NCBI GenBank assembly: GCA_044070495.1
Contig: JBIPSI010000001.1
Coordinates: 1-64,000 of the forward strand
DNA from: Spirulina sp.
GTDB taxonomy: Bacteria > Cyanobacteriota > Cyanobacteriia > Phormidesmidales > Phormidesmidaceae
DNA: 64,000 bases
Direction: 5' to 3'
A program made the translations under genes and the position numbers. Of this stretch, positions 41,092 to 48,830 are shown one piece after another. Under the pieces are notes generated by a model. It saw only the letters and a program-made list of their open reading frames with translations, did no database searches and was not told the DNA's origin. Position 1 is the first letter of the stretch; each line of letters starts with the position of its first letter.

Positions 41092-42288
41092 ATGAAAATC
41101 CTGCTAGTTTCCGCTGAGCAAGGGCAGCGAAAGGCGCTTCACCACGCCCTGTCTCGCCACAGTTTTATTGTGGATGTGGCCAGCGACGGGGAAGAAGCTT
41201 GGGACATGCTGAAAGCCTTTCGCTACGATGTGGTGCTGCTGGAGGTCCAGTTGCCGAAGTTGGATGGCCTTAGTCTGTGCCATCGTCTGCGGGAGGTGGG
41301 AAATCCGGTGCTGCTGTTGATGATGGTGGAGGCCGATGGGGCAACGACGGGGGTGCAGGGGCTAGACCACGGTGCCGATGCCTACTTGACCCTGCCCATC
41401 CAGGAAGATGAACTGCTGGCCCACCTCCGCGCCTTGGCCCGCCGGGGTTTTCGTCGGGCTGGCCCCACCTTTTACTGGGGGCCGCTGCGACTGGATCCAA
41501 TGGCTCAACAGATCACCTGCCAGGGGCAGGCGCTCAAACTCAATCGCAAGGAATATCAACTGCTGGAGCTATTTTTGAACCAGCCTCGCCGGATGTTCTC
41601 CCGTGGCGACATTGGCGACCGCATTTGGCCCCTGGAAAGCGACCTGCCCAGCGATGCCACGATTAAAAGCCATATCCGCAGCATTCGCCGCAAGTTAGAG
41701 CGGGCTGGTATTTTGGACTTTATTCAGACTCACTATGGCCAGGGCTATTGCCTCAATCCGGCCTACGATCCGGGCACGAAGGCGAAACCTCCTGTTACCA
41801 CCATGCCAGAACTGATGATGGACAGTATTACGGCCAACATCTGGCAAGAATTGATGGCTGCCAATGCCCAACTTACTCAAGAAATTGAGCAGCGCAAGCA
41901 AGTAGAAGCCCAACTGCGACGGTCAGAAGTGATGCTGCGGAATGCCCAGCGGGTGGCGCAAATTGGCTGTTGGGAGGCCACCATCAGCACCCGTGAGGTC
42001 TACTGGACGGAGGAAATGTACCTGATTCACGGCTTTGATCCTAGCGACCCGCCCCCCACCCCAGAGCAAATAGAAGCCCTGATTCACCCGGATGATCAGC
42101 AACTTCATGCGGACGTGATTCAGGCAGCGGCGCAGCGGGGAGAACCCTTTGAAGCAAATTTGCGTATTATTCGGGCCGATGGGGAGGTGCGCTACATCAA
42201 CGCCCGTGGGGGGCCGCTGTTTGACGATGACGGCAAGATGGTTAAACTCACCGGAACCACCTTTGATGTCACTCGCTGGCATCGGTAA
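41092..42288 (+). CDS. OmpR-type regulator: degenerate receiver + winged helix + C-terminal PAS
   Basis: LNRKEYQLLE...TIKSHIRSIRRKL...THYGQGY; PAS IHPDD...RIIRADGEVRYI...GTTFDVT. Confidence 0.85.
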   Translation: MKILLVSAEQGQRKALHHALSRHSFIVDVASDGEEAWDMLKAFRYDVVLLEVQLPKLDGLSLCHRLREVGNPVLLLMMVEADGATTGVQGLDHGADAYLTLPIQEDELLAHLRALARRGFRRAGPTFYWGPLRLDPMAQQITCQGQALKLNRKEYQLLELFLNQPRRMFSRGDIGDRIWPLESDLPSDATIKSHIRSIRRKLERAGILDFIQTHYGQGYCLNPAYDPGTKAKPPVTTMPELMMDSITANIWQELMAANAQLTQEIEQRKQVEAQLRRSEVMLRNAQRVAQIGCWEATISTREVYWTEEMYLIHGFDPSDPPPTPEQIEALIHPDDQQLHADVIQAAAQRGEPFEANLRIIRADGEVRYINARGGPLFDDDGKMVKLTGTTFDVTRWHR

Positions 42289-42398: not shown

Positions 42399-42541
42399 AT
42401 AGGGTGCTTAAGGTGCCCAACAAGGTTAGTCGGTCGAGCCGTGATGCCCCATCGGTAAGACTCGACCTAACCTGTCTGTGCGATCAGCACTATTGATCAA
42501 CCGTTGATCAACCACAGACGATGCTAGATGAGGATTTATCC

Positions 42542-43018
42542 ATGCGAACCTCCCAATTTTTAACGGGCACCGTAGCGACCCTGTTGTTGATGGGTGCCCC
42601 TGGTGGAGCCGCCCTGGCGCAGGTATCGGCTCCTGCCCCTGCCCCCCAAACTCAGCTTTCCGAAAGCCAGATTGACCGCTTTGTTAGCGCCTATCAGGCC
42701 ATTCAAGCCATCCAGGAAGAGATTCAGCCTGACCTGATCATGGCGGTAGAATCCCAGGGTCTATCGGTGGAGGACTATAACCGCATCGCCGAGGCTCAGC
42801 AGTCCCCAGAGATGGCGGCGAATATTCCCGCCGATGAGACCGAACAATTTGCGGCGGCGGTGGAGCAGGTGAGGGCCATTCGCGCTGAAGCCCAGGCCGA
42901 AATGGAAACCGCCATTCAGGCGGAAAACCTTACCCCAGAGGAGTTTGGCCAAATTCTCACCCTGGCCCAGCAGGATCCCCAGGTGCAGGCCATCATTAGC
43001 GAGCGGCTGGCCCAATAG
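42542..43018 (+). CDS. DUF4168 exported protein
   Basis: Signal peptide; two repeats like FV.AY..IQ...VESQGLSVEDYNRI and QQDPQVQAII. Confidence 0.8.
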   Translation: MRTSQFLTGTVATLLLMGAPGGAALAQVSAPAPAPQTQLSESQIDRFVSAYQAIQAIQEEIQPDLIMAVESQGLSVEDYNRIAEAQQSPEMAANIPADETEQFAAAVEQVRAIRAEAQAEMETAIQAENLTPEEFGQILTLAQQDPQVQAIISERLAQ

Positions 43019-43096: not shown

Positions 43097-44593
43097 CTAG
43101 CCTCCAACCCCTTGGCCAATCCAAGCCGACTGGGGCGGTAGATGTGCCCCCTCTGGCCCGATGTGGGCTTGGCGGTAGGCCCAGAGGGTTTCCCAGGTCT
43201 GGGTTGAGCTGGACTGATTCTCCCTGGACTGTCCGAATGCCTGGAGTTGCTGAGCCGTTAGCGTGGTTGCAACGTTCCCGGCATTGAGAACGACGAGGAT
43301 CGTTTCGGCGTCCCGGCCCTCGTCTTTCAGGGTTCTGGTGAACCCATAGGTGTTTCCCTCGGCATGGCAGACCTGGTAGGTGCCCGTACGCAGGGCGGGG
43401 TGTTGGTGGCGCAGGGCAATCAGGGCTTTGTGGATGTGCAAAAGTTCCCGATTCCAGGCCGACTCTGGCGGAAAGGTGCGGCGGCAGTCGGGGTCGAGTT
43501 CTCCGGGTAGGCCCACCTCGTCGCCATAGTAAAGGCTGGGGGCACCGGGAAAGGTCAGCAGCAGCACCGTTGCCAACACCACGCTGGCCTCGTCTTCCCC
43601 CACCACCGACAGCGCCCGCGCCACATCATGGCTAGAAAGCAGGTTGAGCTGAGTAAGCTGGATTTCCCAGGGATAGAGATCCAGCAACGCCTGAATCTTG
43701 GCCCCATAGCCCGCCGCATCCAGGGCCGGATAGGGAAAATAGTGGGGAATTTCCACCAACTCCCGCCGCACCCGATCCCCCGCCGCAAAGGCCAGGGTTG
43801 GCCCAGTAAATAGGTAGTTCATCACCCCATCAAACTGGGTGCCATCGAGCCACTGGCGGGCATCCGTCCACACTTCGCCGACGATGTAAGCATCAGAATT
43901 AATGGCCTTAATACGATCCCGAAACTCCTGCCAAAAGCCCGCTGTCTTCACCTCGTAGGGCACATCCAGCCGCCAGCCATCAATGCCCTGGCGCACCCAA
44001 TATTCCCCCACCCGCATCAGGTATTCCCGTGCCGCCGGATGGTCGTGGTTAAAGGTGGGCAGGGCGCGATTATCCACCCAGCTTTGATAATTGGCTGGCC
44101 TACTGCCATCGTAGGCCGACAGGGGCCACCCCTCCACCCGAAACCACTCTAGCCAGGGGGAATGGGGGCCATTTTCCAAAATGTCGTTAAAAAAGAAAAA
44201 GCCTCGGCTAGCATGGTTAAAAACCCCATCCAACACCACCTTCATGTCCCGCTGGTGGGCGGCCTCTAAAAGGTCAAAAAATGCCGCATTTCCCCCCAAT
44301 AATGGATCAACCTGGTAGTAATCGTGGGTGTGGTAGCGGTGGTTGCTGGCCGACTGGAAAATCGGCGTGAAGTAGATTGCCGTAATCCCCAAGTCTTGCA
44401 AATAGTCCAGCTTTTCGAGGACTCCCCACAGGTCACCCCCCTTATAGCCAAACAAGGTTGGCGGTTCATCCCACGGCTCCAAGGCCACCGCCATCGCTGG
44501 GTTATCTACCCGCCGCTGGGTACGGGCCATGCGATCCGGAAAAATCTGGTAAAACACCGCCTGTTTCACCCAGTCCGGCGTTTGAATAGCCAT
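43097..44593 (-). CDS. GH13 neopullulanase/cyclomaltodextrinase
   Basis: FYQIFPDR, DGVFNH, GWRLDV, GEVW, SHD, YYGDE. Confidence 0.92.
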   Translation of the reverse strand: MAIQTPDWVKQAVFYQIFPDRMARTQRRVDNPAMAVALEPWDEPPTLFGYKGGDLWGVLEKLDYLQDLGITAIYFTPIFQSASNHRYHTHDYYQVDPLLGGNAAFFDLLEAAHQRDMKVVLDGVFNHASRGFFFFNDILENGPHSPWLEWFRVEGWPLSAYDGSRPANYQSWVDNRALPTFNHDHPAAREYLMRVGEYWVRQGIDGWRLDVPYEVKTAGFWQEFRDRIKAINSDAYIVGEVWTDARQWLDGTQFDGVMNYLFTGPTLAFAAGDRVRRELVEIPHYFPYPALDAAGYGAKIQALLDLYPWEIQLTQLNLLSSHDVARALSVVGEDEASVVLATVLLLTFPGAPSLYYGDEVGLPGELDPDCRRTFPPESAWNRELLHIHKALIALRHQHPALRTGTYQVCHAEGNTYGFTRTLKDEGRDAETILVVLNAGNVATTLTAQQLQAFGQSRENQSSSTQTWETLWAYRQAHIGPEGAHLPPQSAWIGQGVGG

Positions 44594-44683
44594 GCCCTCT
44601 GCCTCGGTTGCTACCCCGTTAGGCTATCGTCATCTGCCAACCCTGGCTAGGGGAAGCCCATCGGGTAGAATATTACTGATCCT

Positions 44684-44757
44684 GGGGCTGTAGCTCAGCA
44701 GGATAGAGCGACCGCCTCCTAAGCGGTAGGTCGCGGGTTCAAATCCCGCCAGCCCTG
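44684..44757 (+). tRNA. tRNA-Arg(CCT)
   Basis: GGGGCTG/CAGCCCT acceptor stem, anticodon loop CTCCTAA, T-loop GGTTCAAATCC. Confidence 0.95.
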
Positions 44758-44760
44758 TAG

Positions 44761-44791
44761 CCCAAAGCCCTTGCATTGCAAGGGCTTTGGG
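44761..44791 (+). terminator. Hairpin after tRNA
   Basis: CCCAAAGCCCTTGCA-T-TGCAAGGGCTTTGGG inverted repeat. Confidence 0.65.
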
Positions 44792-44980
44792 TGTTTAGGG
44801 GAACTTTTAATCCCCTTGCGAACTCCCCTCTCTCCCAAATCCACGGAAACGTATTGTTCTCGTCATGGTCGATGATGGTGCTAGAGGTGGATGTCTGTGG
44901 CCCCTGCCTGCATCAGGTCATCCACAAAGCCGGGCCAATGCGCTTGGGCCACTCGTTGACTTATAAAAGGCCTAAAGACG

Positions 44981-45024
44981 TTTTATCCGGTTATCAGGAA
45001 ACTCTCAGGTGCGGTTGCTAGGTT
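44981..45024 (+). promoter_or_regulatory. Putative OmpR-family box plus -10 upstream of the kinase
   Basis: TTTTATC-N6-TCAGG-N6-TCAGG-N9-TAGGTT; the same layout recurs at 47463. Confidence 0.6.
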
Positions 45025-45071
45025 TAAGGGTGTGACGCGCTAGGGTTGGCGCATTCCTGAGAATTCCTAGG

Positions 45072-46547
45072 GTGGCTATGGCACCGATGCGGTATCGCTT
45101 ACGAACATTTCTCCACCGCTGGATTGACCTCAACTCGCTTCAGGTGCGGCTCACCGCTGGAGTAGTCTTAGCGTCGTTGGTGGCGATGGCGGGGTTAACC
45201 GGATGGCTGGGCTGGCGTACCCAGGCAATTTTGCTGGATAGTCACGTCCATCAGGCCAGTTTGGTGGTGGCCCGCTTTCGAGAGGATGTCGATTCCTACG
45301 CAGATCAGATGTCTGTTCAAATGGCGATGCAGAAGGTGATCAACCACCGCACCACCGGGGATTTAGCCCTATGGGTGACGACTTCAGCGGGGGATGTGGT
45401 AGCCCAGTCGGAAACCCTCACCATGGGGTCTTGGCAGGGATCTGGGGTGGCTGAGGCGCTGCTTACCCAGGCGATGGCGGAAGGGATTGCGATCCAGCCG
45501 ATTCAGACCTGGGTGTTTGTGGTCTGTGCCGAGCCGTTAGCCATGGAGGGCTTCCCCACCGCCACCCTGCACCTCGCCAACGACATCACGGCAGAATACC
45601 AGGGGCTTCAGCAGTTGATTCGGATGCTGTGGCTGACCGGGTTGGTGATGGTGGCGCTCCTCGCCCTGGTCTGCACGCTGTATATCCGTCGTGCCCTGCG
45701 GCCCATTCGCCAGATCAATCACCTCGCCAGCCAGGTGACGGTAGACAACCTAGGCCAGCAGACCTTTTCGCTGCCCGCCGCCCCCACAGAGGTGGCTGAG
45801 TTGGTGCAGACCTATAACCTGATGCTGACCCGACTGGCCAAGGCTTGGGCACAGCAGAAGCGGTTTATCAACGATATTTCCCACGAGCTACGCACGCCGC
45901 TGACCCTGGTGCAGGGCTATCTAGACAGCACCCTGCGACGGGCCGATACCCTCACCCCACCCCAGCGCCAGGGGCTAGAAATTGCCGCCGCCGAAACCCA
46001 CCGCACCATTCATCTATTAACGGAACTGCTGGAACTGGCCCGCCTCGACAACCACCAGCGAACCCTGACCCTGGCCCCCGCCGACCTGGTGGATATCGTC
46101 AAAACGGCTATCGCTGTGGTGGTGGATGAGGCGATCCCAAAAACCGATAGCCCGTCCCGAATTCAACTGGAGACCCCAGGCGTGTCCCCGGTGGTGCAGG
46201 TGGATCGAGACAAGCTGGTGGCCGCCCTAGTGGAACTGCTGGACAATGCCCTGCGCTATTCGGACACCCACCAGCCGATTCGGGTGCAGGTGTTGGCTCA
46301 GCCAGATTGGGCCTTGGTGCAAATCCACGACCAGGGGCCAGGGATTCCGGCCCAGGATCAAACGGGGGTATTCGACCCCTTCTACCGGGTGGATGAGAAT
46401 CGATCTCGCCAGGGCGGCGGCACGGGCTTGGGGCTGACCCTAGTGCGGTCGTTGGTGGAGGCGATGGCGGGCCAGGTGAGTTTGCGATCCCAGCCCCAGC
46501 AAGGCTGTGTGTTTACCATTGCGCTGCCCCGATCATCGGCAGGGTAG
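45072..46547 (+). CDS. Membrane sensor histidine kinase (HAMP-HisKA-HATPase)
   Basis: Two TMs, ISHELRTPLT, DNALRYS, DQGPGI, GGTGLGL. Confidence 0.95.
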   Translation: MAMAPMRYRLRTFLHRWIDLNSLQVRLTAGVVLASLVAMAGLTGWLGWRTQAILLDSHVHQASLVVARFREDVDSYADQMSVQMAMQKVINHRTTGDLALWVTTSAGDVVAQSETLTMGSWQGSGVAEALLTQAMAEGIAIQPIQTWVFVVCAEPLAMEGFPTATLHLANDITAEYQGLQQLIRMLWLTGLVMVALLALVCTLYIRRALRPIRQINHLASQVTVDNLGQQTFSLPAAPTEVAELVQTYNLMLTRLAKAWAQQKRFINDISHELRTPLTLVQGYLDSTLRRADTLTPPQRQGLEIAAAETHRTIHLLTELLELARLDNHQRTLTLAPADLVDIVKTAIAVVVDEAIPKTDSPSRIQLETPGVSPVVQVDRDKLVAALVELLDNALRYSDTHQPIRVQVLAQPDWALVQIHDQGPGIPAQDQTGVFDPFYRVDENRSRQGGGTGLGLTLVRSLVEAMAGQVSLRSQPQQGCVFTIALPRSSAG

Positions 46548-46608
46548 CGGAGACCGTAGGGGCGAGATCTCCTCGCCCGCTGATACTCAACAGGAGGCAA
46601 GGCAGGCG

Positions 46609-47304
46609 ATGACAGCAAAGACGTTAGCGAAGATTCTCATGGTAGACGATGAGGCGAACCTGGCCCAGTTTGTGAAGCTTGAGCTGACCTACGAAGGCTA
46701 TGAGGTGAACGTGGCCCACGATGGTCTATCGGGGTTGATGGCGGCTCGCGACCAAGAACCCGACCTGATCATCCTGGATTGGATGATGCCGGGACTGAGC
46801 GGGGTGGAGGTCTGTCGTCGTCTGCGCCAAACCGGATCAAAAACCCCGATTATTTTGCTGACAGCCAAGGACGACATCAGCGACCGGGTGGAAGGGCTAG
46901 ACGCTGGAGCCAATGACTATGTGGTTAAACCCTTCAGCATCGAGGAACTGATGGCGCGGGTGAGGGCACAACTGCGATCCCTCCAACCCCAGGAGGCCGA
47001 GCAGTTAGTCTATGCTGACCTCAGCCTAGACCGCAAAAGCCGCCAGGTGGTTCGTAATGGGCGATCCATTGAGCTAACCGCCAAGGAGTTTGACCTGCTG
47101 GATTACCTGATGACCTACCCGCGCCAGGTGCTCACCCGCGACCGCATCCTCGAAGAAGTGTGGGGCTACGACTTCATGGGCGACTCCAACATCATTGAGG
47201 TCTATATTCGCTACCTGCGCCTAAAACTGGAGGCCGAGGGCGAACCCCGCCTGATCCAAACCGTGCGCGGCGTCGGCTACGTGCTGCGAGAAGCCGCTTT
47301 CTAA
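46609..47304 (+). CDS. OmpR-family response regulator
   Basis: VDDE, LDWMMPG, LTA, KPF, LTAKEFDLL, IQTVRGVGY; AGGAGG upstream. Confidence 0.95.
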   Translation: MTAKTLAKILMVDDEANLAQFVKLELTYEGYEVNVAHDGLSGLMAARDQEPDLIILDWMMPGLSGVEVCRRLRQTGSKTPIILLTAKDDISDRVEGLDAGANDYVVKPFSIEELMARVRAQLRSLQPQEAEQLVYADLSLDRKSRQVVRNGRSIELTAKEFDLLDYLMTYPRQVLTRDRILEEVWGYDFMGDSNIIEVYIRYLRLKLEAEGEPRLIQTVRGVGYVLREAAF

Positions 47305-47462
47305 GCCTAGTTTTTTACCTTAAGGAGATTTCTGGAAAATGTTCTCCCCCATGGTGGGCAGTGCCCACTCTACGGTGGCTATAGTCGCCGCCTAAAGCAG
47401 GGATCTTTTTTCCTAGAAGTCTCTTAGCTTCTCAGCTTCCTCTCATTGTATTTTAGGCTACT

Positions 47463-47506
47463 TTCTATCAACCATTCAGGGAAGACTCAGGCCAGCCTCG
47501 CACCAT
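47463..47506 (+). promoter_or_regulatory. Putative OmpR-family box plus -10 upstream of the microprotein gene
   Basis: TTCTATC-N6-TCAGG-N6-TCAGG-N9-CACCAT. Confidence 0.6.
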
Positions 47507-47561
47507 GGGAACTGTAAACCCCATAGGAAACGAGGGACATTCCCCTCGTTAGGAGGAACTC

Positions 47562-47735
47562 ATGAAACGGACCATCATCTCTGGTTTGACGATTCTAATC
47601 TCCAGCTTGACCCTGGCTTCGGCGGCGATGGCCTCCCAAACGACGATCCACGATTTAGCCGCAGACTTAAATGGCGATGGCGTGGTCACCCTGGGAGAAC
47701 TGGTGAAGCACAACCGCGACCAGCGGCAATCCTAA
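47562..47735 (+). CDS. 57-aa secreted microprotein with one EF-hand-like loop (absent from the ORF track)
   Basis: AGGAGG at 47551; MKRTIISGLTILISSLTLASAAMA-SQTTIHDLAADLNGDGVVTLGELVKHNRDQRQS*. Confidence 0.8.
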   Translation: MKRTIISGLTILISSLTLASAAMASQTTIHDLAADLNGDGVVTLGELVKHNRDQRQS

Positions 47736-47746
47736 GGGGATATTTG

Positions 47747-47780
47747 GACAGTGGTAGTGCATTAATGCACTACCACTGTC
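47747..47780. repeat. Perfect 34-bp palindrome between convergent genes
   Basis: GACAGTGGTAGTGCATT|AATGCACTACCACTGTC. Confidence 0.85.
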
Positions 47781-48830
47781 TTATTCGGCCTTAAGCAAAA
47801 TGATTTCCTGGCGCAGGCCGGAGAGAGTGGATTGTCCGGTACAAAACAGGACGGTTTTGATCTCCGCAATCAAAACCTCAGCCAGGGTAGCAACGGCTTC
47901 TTCCGAGTCGCTGGCGGCTTTGAGGAAGGGATAGGCCAGCCCGGCCAGGTCGGCCCCTAGGGCGAGGGTTTTGGCTACGTCTAGCCCGTTGCGGAGGCCA
48001 CCGGAGGCAATCAGCGGCAGGGTGGGGGCCACTTGGCGGGCAGCGATCAAGCAATCGGCGGTGGGGATGCCCCAATCGGCAAAGGTTTGGCCCAGGCGGC
48101 GCTGGATGGGGTCAACGGCCCGTTCGCTTTCTACCTTGGCCCAGGAGGTACCCCCGGCCCCAGCCACATCCACCGCCGAGACTCCGACCTCCATCAGTCG
48201 TTTCACCAAAGGCGCAGAAATACCGTTGCCCACTTCTTTCACGACCACAGGGACGGGCAGGGCGGCGCAGATTTGCCCAATTTTGGCGATCAGCCCCTTA
48301 AAGTTGGTGTCGCCACGGGTTTGCACCGCCTCTTGCAGGGGGTTGAGGTGCAAAATTAGGGCGCTGGCTTCCAGGTGTTCCACCACCCGACGGCATTGGT
48401 CGATGTCGTAGCCGTAGTTGAACTGCACTGCCCCCAGGTTGGCCAGCAGCAAAATATCCGGGGCCACCTCCCGTACTCTAAAGGTGGTGATCAGGGCGGG
48501 GTTTTCTATCGCCACCCGCTGGGAACCCACCCCCATGGCCAACCCGTAGCGCTGGGCCGCCGCCGCCAGCCGTTGGTTGATGCGATGGGCTTCCTCGGTG
48601 CCGCCCGTCATGGAAGAAATCAGCAGCGGTGCCCCCAGACGATGGCCCAAAAACGTGGTGCCCAGGTCAAGATCCTGCCAATCTACCTCTGGCAGGGCAC
48701 AATGGCGAAACCGAAACCGCTCCAACCCTGTGGTGACCTGGCGGCACTGCACACCCTCGTCTAGGCAAATCCGAATGTGATCCGCTTTGCGGGTCTGGGT
48801 TTCGTGGGCAGCAATGGGCGATACAGTCAC
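47781..48830 (-). CDS. fni: Type 2 isopentenyl-diphosphate isomerase
   Basis: [40 protein letters not shown]. Confidence 0.97.

Follow-up and report, generated by a model that had tools for sequence, protein, structure and literature searches.

The PhoB/PhoR pair stands for the way OmpR/PhoB-family regulators activate transcription, there through pho boxes. In MgrB-PhoQ, CpxP-CpxA, and ZraP-ZraS, a small exported product of the regulon is found in the compartment of the sensor domain. Of the three products, MgrB is a peptide anchored in the membrane, CpxP and ZraP are helical and some 150 residues long, and to our knowledge none has an EF-hand. The CarSR two-component system of Pseudomonas aeruginosa has as targets CarO and CarP, small Ca2+-related proteins in cation homeostasis, which the accessible text of a review describes as an OB-fold protein and a beta-propeller, respectively (PMC10574481). 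Here, we describe a locus in a 64-kb stretch of Spirulina sp. DNA (GenBank GCA_044070495.1, contig JBIPSI010000001.1, positions 1 to 64,000; hereafter the window) that encodes a sensor histidine kinase, an OmpR/PhoB-family response regulator and, after them, a 57-residue pre-peptide with one EF-hand loop. An original prediction, made from the letters of the window, held that the kinase operon and the peptide gene share one promoter box in an autoregulated module, and that the peptide might feed back on the kinase. Literature searches, reaching few subscription journals, returned no paper that treats the box, the peptide family, or this two-component system.

The locus is like PhoB/PhoR in that the regulator joins a receiver to a winged helix, in that direct repeats with an 11-bp period abut the -10 element and replace the -35, and in that the system's own operon carries the site. 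It is unlike PhoB/PhoR in that the half-site is TCAG(G/C) and not a pho box, and the regulator scores below the PhoB cut-off (245 versus 296 bits). As with MgrB, CpxP, and ZraP, a small exported product would share the compartment of the sensor domain, as predicted here, but this product has an EF-hand and is usually unlinked to its system. The likeness to CarSR is one of idea: both are two-component systems with a small Ca2+-related output, Ca2+ binding being predicted in our case, but CarO and CarP, going by the accessible review text, are not EF-hand proteins and the peptide here is of EF-hand type (PMC10574481). The circuit belongs neither with CarSR nor with the families of regulon-encoded periplasmic modulators. 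The account that we favor, with moderate confidence and on sequence comparisons, is of an autoregulated two-component system that would drive its own operon, a DM13 lipoprotein, a VTT protein with an oxidoreductase, and, from weaker sites, peptides with an exported, cation-binding EF-hand.

The kinase-regulator pair and its probable operator

The kinase gene is at 45072..46547 (+). Its product has a first transmembrane segment (TM1), a periplasmic domain of about 133 residues (approximately residues 49-181), TM2, and the HAMP, HisKA, and HATPase_c domains, these last by Pfam and the TM segments by eye. The listed start is the GTG at 45072; because orthologs align from the ATG at 45078, that is probably the true one. 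The regulator gene is at 46609..47304 (+), with Pfam matches to Response_reg (E = 8 × 10−33) and Trans_reg_C (E = 5.4 × 10−30) for its receiver and winged helix. The Pfam scan thus finds in the pair the domains that an OmpR/PhoB-family two-component system requires, as had been proposed. The best NCBIfam match of the regulator is NblR (NF045914), with 284 bits for a cut-off of 300, and it falls below every equivalog cut-off in that collection.

Of 52 other genomes of the genus searched with the kinase, 34 have matches with an identity of 57% or more, and the regulator adjoins wherever the DNA was fetched. Across the cyanobacterial family as a whole, 133 of 150 other genomes have an ortholog of the regulator. 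The compared genomes are related to each other, so that counts of co-occurrence, here and below, are not independent and overstate the evidence. In the labels used below, G000 is the source genome (5.31 Mb, searched on both strands), other G numbers are compared genomes, C denotes a contig, and L a locus. At G047:C60 (L082), all that is left of the kinase gene is its opening codons, fused to a remnant of the C-terminal part, with the box and an 80%-identical regulator kept; this reads as a regulator orphaned by an internal deletion of its kinase gene.

The putative promoter and operator of the operon, recognized by its sequence and its conservation, is at 44981..45024 (+) and reads TTTTATC-CGGTTA-TCAGG-AAACTC-TCAGG-TGCGGTTGC-TAGGTT. 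Its units are a weak TTTAT at 44982-44986 and TCAGG at 44994-44998 and again at 45005-45009. A spacer of 9 nt, with TGC as its last letters, separates these from the -10 hexamer TAGGTT at 45019-45024. All 30 orthologous kinase loci examined have the pattern TA-TCAG(G/C)-N3-YTC-TCAGN, followed by 9 nt that in most cases close with TGn, and by TAnnnT. Of 12 stretches drawn from 11 other genera, 11 have the box as well. The layout is that of an extended -10 promoter with two repeats centered near -35 and -24, and a scan of 44600-47900 for a sigma-70 consensus promoter with -35 and -10 elements found none. Direct repeats with an 11-bp period beside the -10 of the regulator's own operon, conserved in the orthologs, are what autoregulation predicts, and the conservation of this predicted box supports the proposal that the system autoregulates through direct repeats near -35.

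The exact motif TCAGG-N6-TCAGG occurs exactly twice in the window, at the sites upstream of the kinase and of the peptide, with 0.19 expected and at least two seen in 2 of 100 shuffles. The genome-wide scan that the original prediction had suggested gives seven matches, the pair in the window among them. The matches at C4:39933, C7:147552, C14:37651, C19:73340, and C38:30460 were set aside, being inside ORFs (open reading frames) or without a downstream gene. A matrix made from kinase sites had its top match at C1:176283, which lies inside a 973-residue ORF and was rejected as chance. A second matrix, built on 48 unique kinase, DM13, and VTT promoter sites taken from other genomes, places the kinase promoter of this genome first at 35.8, DM13 second at 34.1, and VTT third at 30.3, with the fourth match at 21.3. 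Because the box is conserved before the kinase gene and marks the DM13 and VTT targets described next, it is very likely the operator of this regulator, which would bind to it.

Other genes that carry the box

A loose pattern of box plus -10 has 10 matches in the genome, 7 of them outside long ORFs. Those seven are before the kinase gene, both copies of the peptide gene, a DM13 gene, a VTT gene, and a gene for a 502-residue membrane protein, with one site having no gene.

The DM13-domain lipoprotein gene, at G000:C10:145985-146545 (L052/L055) on the minus strand, has four TCAG-type units at an 11-bp period and the -10 TATGGT. Its orthologs keep four units at exactly 11 bp, followed by TATAGT, at 11 of 12 loci. 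The exception is G010, in which no regulator ortholog was found, the best match to the regulator being 48% identical.

The other target is a VTT/DedA-type (COG0398-like) membrane protein gene at G000:C17:117027-117842 (-), with the box 41 nt before its start. It is followed in an operon by a gene for a pyridine-nucleotide disulfide oxidoreductase that starts at G000:C17:116889 (-). The association of COG0398 DedA proteins with such oxidoreductases is already in print, according to the accessible part of PMC10127716. At each of 10 loci with a VTT ortholog, the box precedes it. A box also stands 3' of the regulator in G062, where VTT is the next gene, and in G022, where the oxidoreductase gene is. 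In 22 genomes, most of the genus, a VTT paralog is divergent to the kinase by its coordinates, and all eight of the loci checked have a box of their own on the opposite strand. VTT paralogs in four genomes that lack the system have no box; the total is 19 boxes at 30 VTT loci.

The remaining intergenic matches in this genome are at G000:C1:100548 (-), before the 502-residue membrane protein, which has no Pfam family, and at G000:C55:2906 (-), with no evident gene. In G004, one copy of the peptide gene (C10:10897-11088) and the VTT ortholog (C10:8127-8828) are both on the minus strand, the former some 2 kb upstream of the latter, which is a second type of linkage among regulon members.

These targets raise the question of whether the regulon responds to metal or redox stress, with the peptide buffering a toxic Ca2+-like cation (a lanthanide, Cd2+, Pb2+, or uranyl) and not Ca2+. 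The oxidoreductase is in a class that includes mercuric reductase, according to the same partly accessible source (PMC10127716), and among the matches of the peptide family profile in the Protein Data Bank (PDB), one is a lanthanum-bound protein, weak at E = 0.017. The best NCBIfam match of the kinase is also to the heavy-metal sensor kinase subfamily TIGR01386 (cztS_silS_copS), but at 207.2 bits, below the cut-off of 292.55. The sensor domain has conserved motifs across orthologs, but its alignment contains no conserved His, Met, or Cys cluster, one Cys apart. Neither the loose pattern nor the matrix finds a box before any efflux pump or metallochaperone gene in this genome, and the loop of the peptide is a plain Ca2+-type EF-hand. 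We regard metal or redox stress as an improbable signal for this regulon.

The peptide and its EF-hand

The 57-residue ORF is at 47562-47735 (+). The original prediction had located this ORF, its AGGAGG, the leader hairpin, the signal peptide, the loop, and the gap-free alignment of the two boxes, and all are where it put them. Its word "unannotated" is right for the ORF track only: in the public records, relatives from Nodosilinea and Phormidesmis are entered as "hypothetical protein" or "EF-hand domain-containing protein". The signal peptide is residues 1-24 (47562-47633, plus strand), made up of MKR, a hydrophobic core, and A-M-A, and predicts Sec-type export with a mature peptide of 33 residues (47634-47732, plus strand) after A-M-A. 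The loop is residues 35-46, DLNGDGVVTLGE, encoded at 47664-47699 (+). It reads D35-L-N37-G-D39-G40-V-V42-T-L-G-E46, having the ligands at positions 1, 3, 5, and 12, the Gly at 6, and the hydrophobic residue at 8 of the canonical 12-residue hand.

The export signal would place the peptide in the periplasm. Sec signal peptides of cyanobacteria serve both membranes, and the sequence itself does not decide between them, so we also considered the thylakoid lumen, where the peptide would have a role in luminal Ca2+ handling. That destination seems quite improbable: the kinase sensor domain is expected to face the periplasm, the other genes with the box encode a lipoprotein and an envelope-type membrane protein, and the loose pattern and matrix together found no luminal or photosystem gene with a box in this genome.

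The ORF is a true conserved gene. Of 24 other genomes of the genus, 11 contain copies, and 16 genomes from as many other families contain none; a family profile finds copies in 89 of the 150 other family genomes. In a class-wide draw, 25 of 39 genomes of the family have the peptide, with one strong match outside it. There are up to four copies per genome, some in tandem. The median ratio of nonsynonymous to synonymous rates (dN/dS) is 0.20 over 71 unsaturated pairs from 17 distinct coding sequences, every pair being under 0.5. In an alignment of 30 sequences, D35, G40, and E46 never vary, and conservation is 90% or higher at N37, D39, V42, N51, D53, and R55, the last three forming a C-terminal motif N51-x-D53-x-R55. 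Together with the EF-hand profile matches below, these results uphold the proposal of a conserved peptide of EF-hand type, its export being predicted.

In this genome, there is a paralog at G000:C56:3046-3231 (-) (L002) with 71% identity. It has a TTAGG-N6-TCAGG box, at the same distance from a -10-like hexamer as the box of the peptide gene in the window, with three further TCAGG upstream. Its leader opens with the same conserved sequence and has a hairpin made of other letters. Downstream of it on the same strand is an ORF that reads by eye as a PAS-type histidine kinase.

An exhaustive protein search returns 50 proteins at E ≤ 0.001, of which 21 have 37-74 residues and one, with 105 residues, has two modules. 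The remainder are long proteins with several EF-hands, and their match is confined to the loop. The two-module protein, P0026, has one signal peptide and two tandem EF-hand modules, each followed by an N-R-D-E-R motif, and is a natural fused pair. The best 60 matches of the family profile in PDB are all EF-hand proteins, the top one being 2jnx (E = 1.4 × 10−9). An atlas look-up gave only the peptide's own cluster at a score of at least 0.9. The AlphaFold2 model has an overall predicted local distance difference test (pLDDT) score of 74.9, with 82-86 over the hand, and consists of the signal helix, an entering helix at residues 32-34, and an exiting helix at 44-56.

Some of these measures are less favorable to an EF-hand. 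As a single sequence, the peptide stays below the Pfam cut-offs, scoring 16.3 bits against EF-hand_5 (cut-off 25.9) and 14.4 against EF-hand_1 (25.4), and the model, with its overall pLDDT of 74.9, has an entering helix of just three residues. Foldseek found no match of the model in PDB at E ≤ 0.001, which is expected because the chain has 57 residues, 24 of them in the signal peptide. Dockerin type I was tried as an alternative identity and rejected, with Dockerin_1 scoring 14.2 bits for a cut-off of 22.9, a single segment, and E at loop position 12.

The D-x-N-x-D-G-x-V-x-x-x-E loop with a following helix is like that of Entamoeba CaBP1/2, calmodulin, the polcalcins, and, among bacterial proteins, EfhP (PMC10574481). 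Unlike canonical EF-hand proteins, which have paired hands, the peptide has a single one in a 33-residue mature chain after a predicted cleavable signal peptide. A small Ca2+ sensor EF-hand protein of filamentous cyanobacteria, CSE, has been described (PMC13578307). The peptide differs from it in its predicted export and single hand, a separation drawn from the accessible description of CSE only (PMC13578307). The loop suggests that the peptide binds Ca2+, and it may do so paired with a second copy, with which the two-module P0026 fits. A complex prediction with two mature peptides and two Ca2+ scored 0.01 (mark 0.42), which weighs neither way on pairing.

Does the peptide belong to the regulon?

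The predicted promoter of the peptide gene is at 47453..47506 (+) and has four repeat units in a layout shared by its paralog and orthologs: TTAGG at 47453-47457, TCTAT at 47464-47468, and TCAGG at 47476-47480 and 47487-47491, followed by a 9-nt spacer and a -10-like CACCAT at 47501-47506. The part from 47463 to 47506 reads TTCTATC-AACCAT-TCAGG-GAAGAC-TCAGG-CCAGCCTCG-CACCAT. It falls in the same register as the kinase upstream stretch, with no gaps, as T(T/C)TATC-N6-TCAGG-N6-TCAGG-N9-hexamer. The claim that the two genes share one promoter box holds in full for this genome, G005, and G050, where the peptide gene comes after the regulator, and for G004, where it is unlinked, all four having the two-repeat box and N9 upstream of the peptide. 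Elsewhere, the claim reduces mostly to the proximal repeat, and the matrices do not rank these promoters. Likewise, the check by homology and synteny that had been suggested divides: the peptide is conserved in the family, but it adjoins the regulator in only three genomes.

Across 29 distinct peptide promoters from 12 genera, TCAGN-N9-nAnnnT is found 69-94 nt before the ATG in 19. The reverse complements of these 29 give 2, and shuffled sequences average 1.2. The phyletic link is also close. A regulator ortholog is present in 87 of the 89 genomes with the peptide, the other two being 84% and 73% complete, and within the genus, 23 of the 30 genomes that have the regulator also have the peptide, which is found in none of the 8 that lack it.

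Several observations weigh against membership. The two peptide promoters of this genome are without the TA and YTC flanks of the kinase box, and their -10 begins with C. Neither of them appears in the top 40 of the kinase-site matrix or in the top 30 of the kinase/DM13/VTT matrix. In most species, the distal/middle repeat is degenerate (TTATT) and the proximal repeat alone is kept, and even the proximal pattern is absent from 10 of the 29 promoters. The gene is unlinked to the two-component system in most genomes, standing directly 3' of the regulator at 3 of 26 loci, and 46 genomes with the regulator show no peptide. There are also RNA contigs from a related organism, from four libraries of one sample, that in three of the four runs extend from the regulator 3' end through a shorter spacer and the proximal box into the leader and the peptide ORF. 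These contigs show neither the start nor the level of a transcript, DNA carry-over is possible, and the uncovered kinase region is uninformative, so they are a weak hint of peptide transcription and no proof. A side observation concerns L127 (G396:C1), in another genus, where the peptide promoter has four tandem 13-nt units starting with TCAGT in place of units spaced at 11 bp.

The question is whether the peptide promoters answer to a different regulator, an OmpR-family paralog, or to none, with the resemblance of the boxes being partial and incidental and the adjacency a local rearrangement. Related DNA-binding proteins are plentiful: a search of five genomes with the regulator protein gave 12 to 20 matching regions in each at E ≤ 1 × 10−30. 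Matrices from the well-supported sites passing over the peptide promoters, the degenerate distal repeat, and the rare adjacency would all fit. This explanation does not account for the proximal TCAGN standing at exactly N9 from a -10-like hexamer well above its control, for the full box in four genomes including the unlinked G004, or for the only two peptide-bearing genomes without a regulator ortholog being incomplete ones. We think it unlikely, although it is the most serious of the alternatives. Membership of the peptide in the regulon, through sites weaker than those of the core targets, is reasonably likely on the promoter and phyletic evidence, and the peptide is probably one output of an ordinary, hitherto undescribed envelope signaling circuit. 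The original prediction overlooked the second peptide copy, the usual unlinked position, and the better-supported members, DM13 and VTT/DedA-oxidoreductase.

Could the peptide act on the kinase?

The more striking form of the prediction is feedback, in which the mature peptide also binds the periplasmic domain of the kinase in a Ca2+-dependent manner and tunes signaling as in MgrB-PhoQ, CpxP-CpxA, or ZraP-ZraS. The peptide, with its signal sequence, and the sensor domain of about 133 residues between two TM segments are predicted to be in a common compartment; the EF-hand itself has no need of the conserved N51, D53, and R55; and the phyletic link of peptide to system is close. Yet the system is kept without the peptide in those 46 genomes, G007 has three peptide copies and a best kinase match just 38% identical, and G047 keeps the box and regulator with its kinase internally deleted. 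The peptide has no evident sequence relation to MgrB or CpxP, its scans with Pfam and NCBIfam giving weak sub-threshold matches or none. We therefore hold it very improbable that the peptide tunes the kinase in this way, and equally so that it is a detachable Ca2+-sensing subunit, docking on the periplasmic domain in its Ca2+-loaded or Ca2+-free form and setting the activity. If that were true, Ca2+ of the envelope would be sensed through a self-induced peptide, a feedback design undescribed for EF-hand proteins or for cyanobacterial two-component systems.

Leader, terminator, and neighboring genes

The predicted 5' leader of the peptide gene is at 47507..47561 (+), its transcription start being a predicted position, and contains the conserved GGGAACTGTAAACC, a hairpin with an 8-bp stem at 47529-47550 (+), and the Shine-Dalgarno AGGAGG at 47551-47556 (+), 5 nt before the ATG. 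The stem that had been predicted is there, but the whole leader folds no better than shuffles (z = -0.40), so that folding energy gives no support and only the local stem is conserved. A consensus stem of six pairs extends across 10 leaders, with both sides changed at three pairs, mostly in one lineage. It stands directly 5' of the Shine-Dalgarno and leaves the ribosome-binding site free.

A 16-bp hairpin at 47746..47781 (-31 kcal/mol, z = -7.4, with 0 of 200 shuffles as stable) lies between the peptide gene and a convergent gene (47781-48830, minus strand), whose stop codon it abuts. It is probably a two-way terminator, and hairpins are seen by eye 3' of most orthologous peptide copies.

An Rfam scan of 44500-48000 gives above threshold only a tRNA gene at 44684-44757 (+) (71.7 bits), about 230 nt 5' of the kinase promoter box, and no match in the peptide leader. 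Farther upstream in the window are what reads by eye as an OmpR-like response regulator extended by a long C-terminal part (41092-42288, plus strand) and a secreted DUF4168 protein (42521-43018, plus strand; Pfam E = 1.1 × 10−19).

Proposed mechanism and significance

In the mechanism we propose, the kinase and the OmpR-family regulator would form an autoregulated two-component system in which the phosphorylated regulator binds TCAG(G/C) direct repeats at 11-bp spacing. With the last repeat ending 9 nt before the -10, it would activate promoters that have no -35 element in the PhoB manner. The operator would drive the system's own operon, the DM13 lipoprotein, VTT/DedA with the oxidoreductase, and, via the weaker sites, the two pre-peptide copies. 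The pre-peptide would be exported by Sec and cut after A-M-A, and its mature part, one EF-hand in 33 residues, would be set free in the periplasm, or possibly in the thylakoid lumen. In that compartment, D35, N37, D39, the V41 carbonyl, T43, and E46 would be ligands for Ca2+ or a similar cation, which it would probably bind after pairing with a second peptide copy.

These findings require no new principle. They define an uncharacterized two-component regulon conserved across one cyanobacterial family, with a clear and testable operator and a small target set: its own operon, DM13, the COG0398-type VTT/DedA protein with its oxidoreductase, and probably the EF-hand peptides. No cyanobacterial role is known for the target proteins, and the regulon therefore gives a common way into studying them. 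Among natural EF-hand proteins, the peptide would be unusually small, and it is a convenient model for Ca2+-driven pairing and exported cation buffering.

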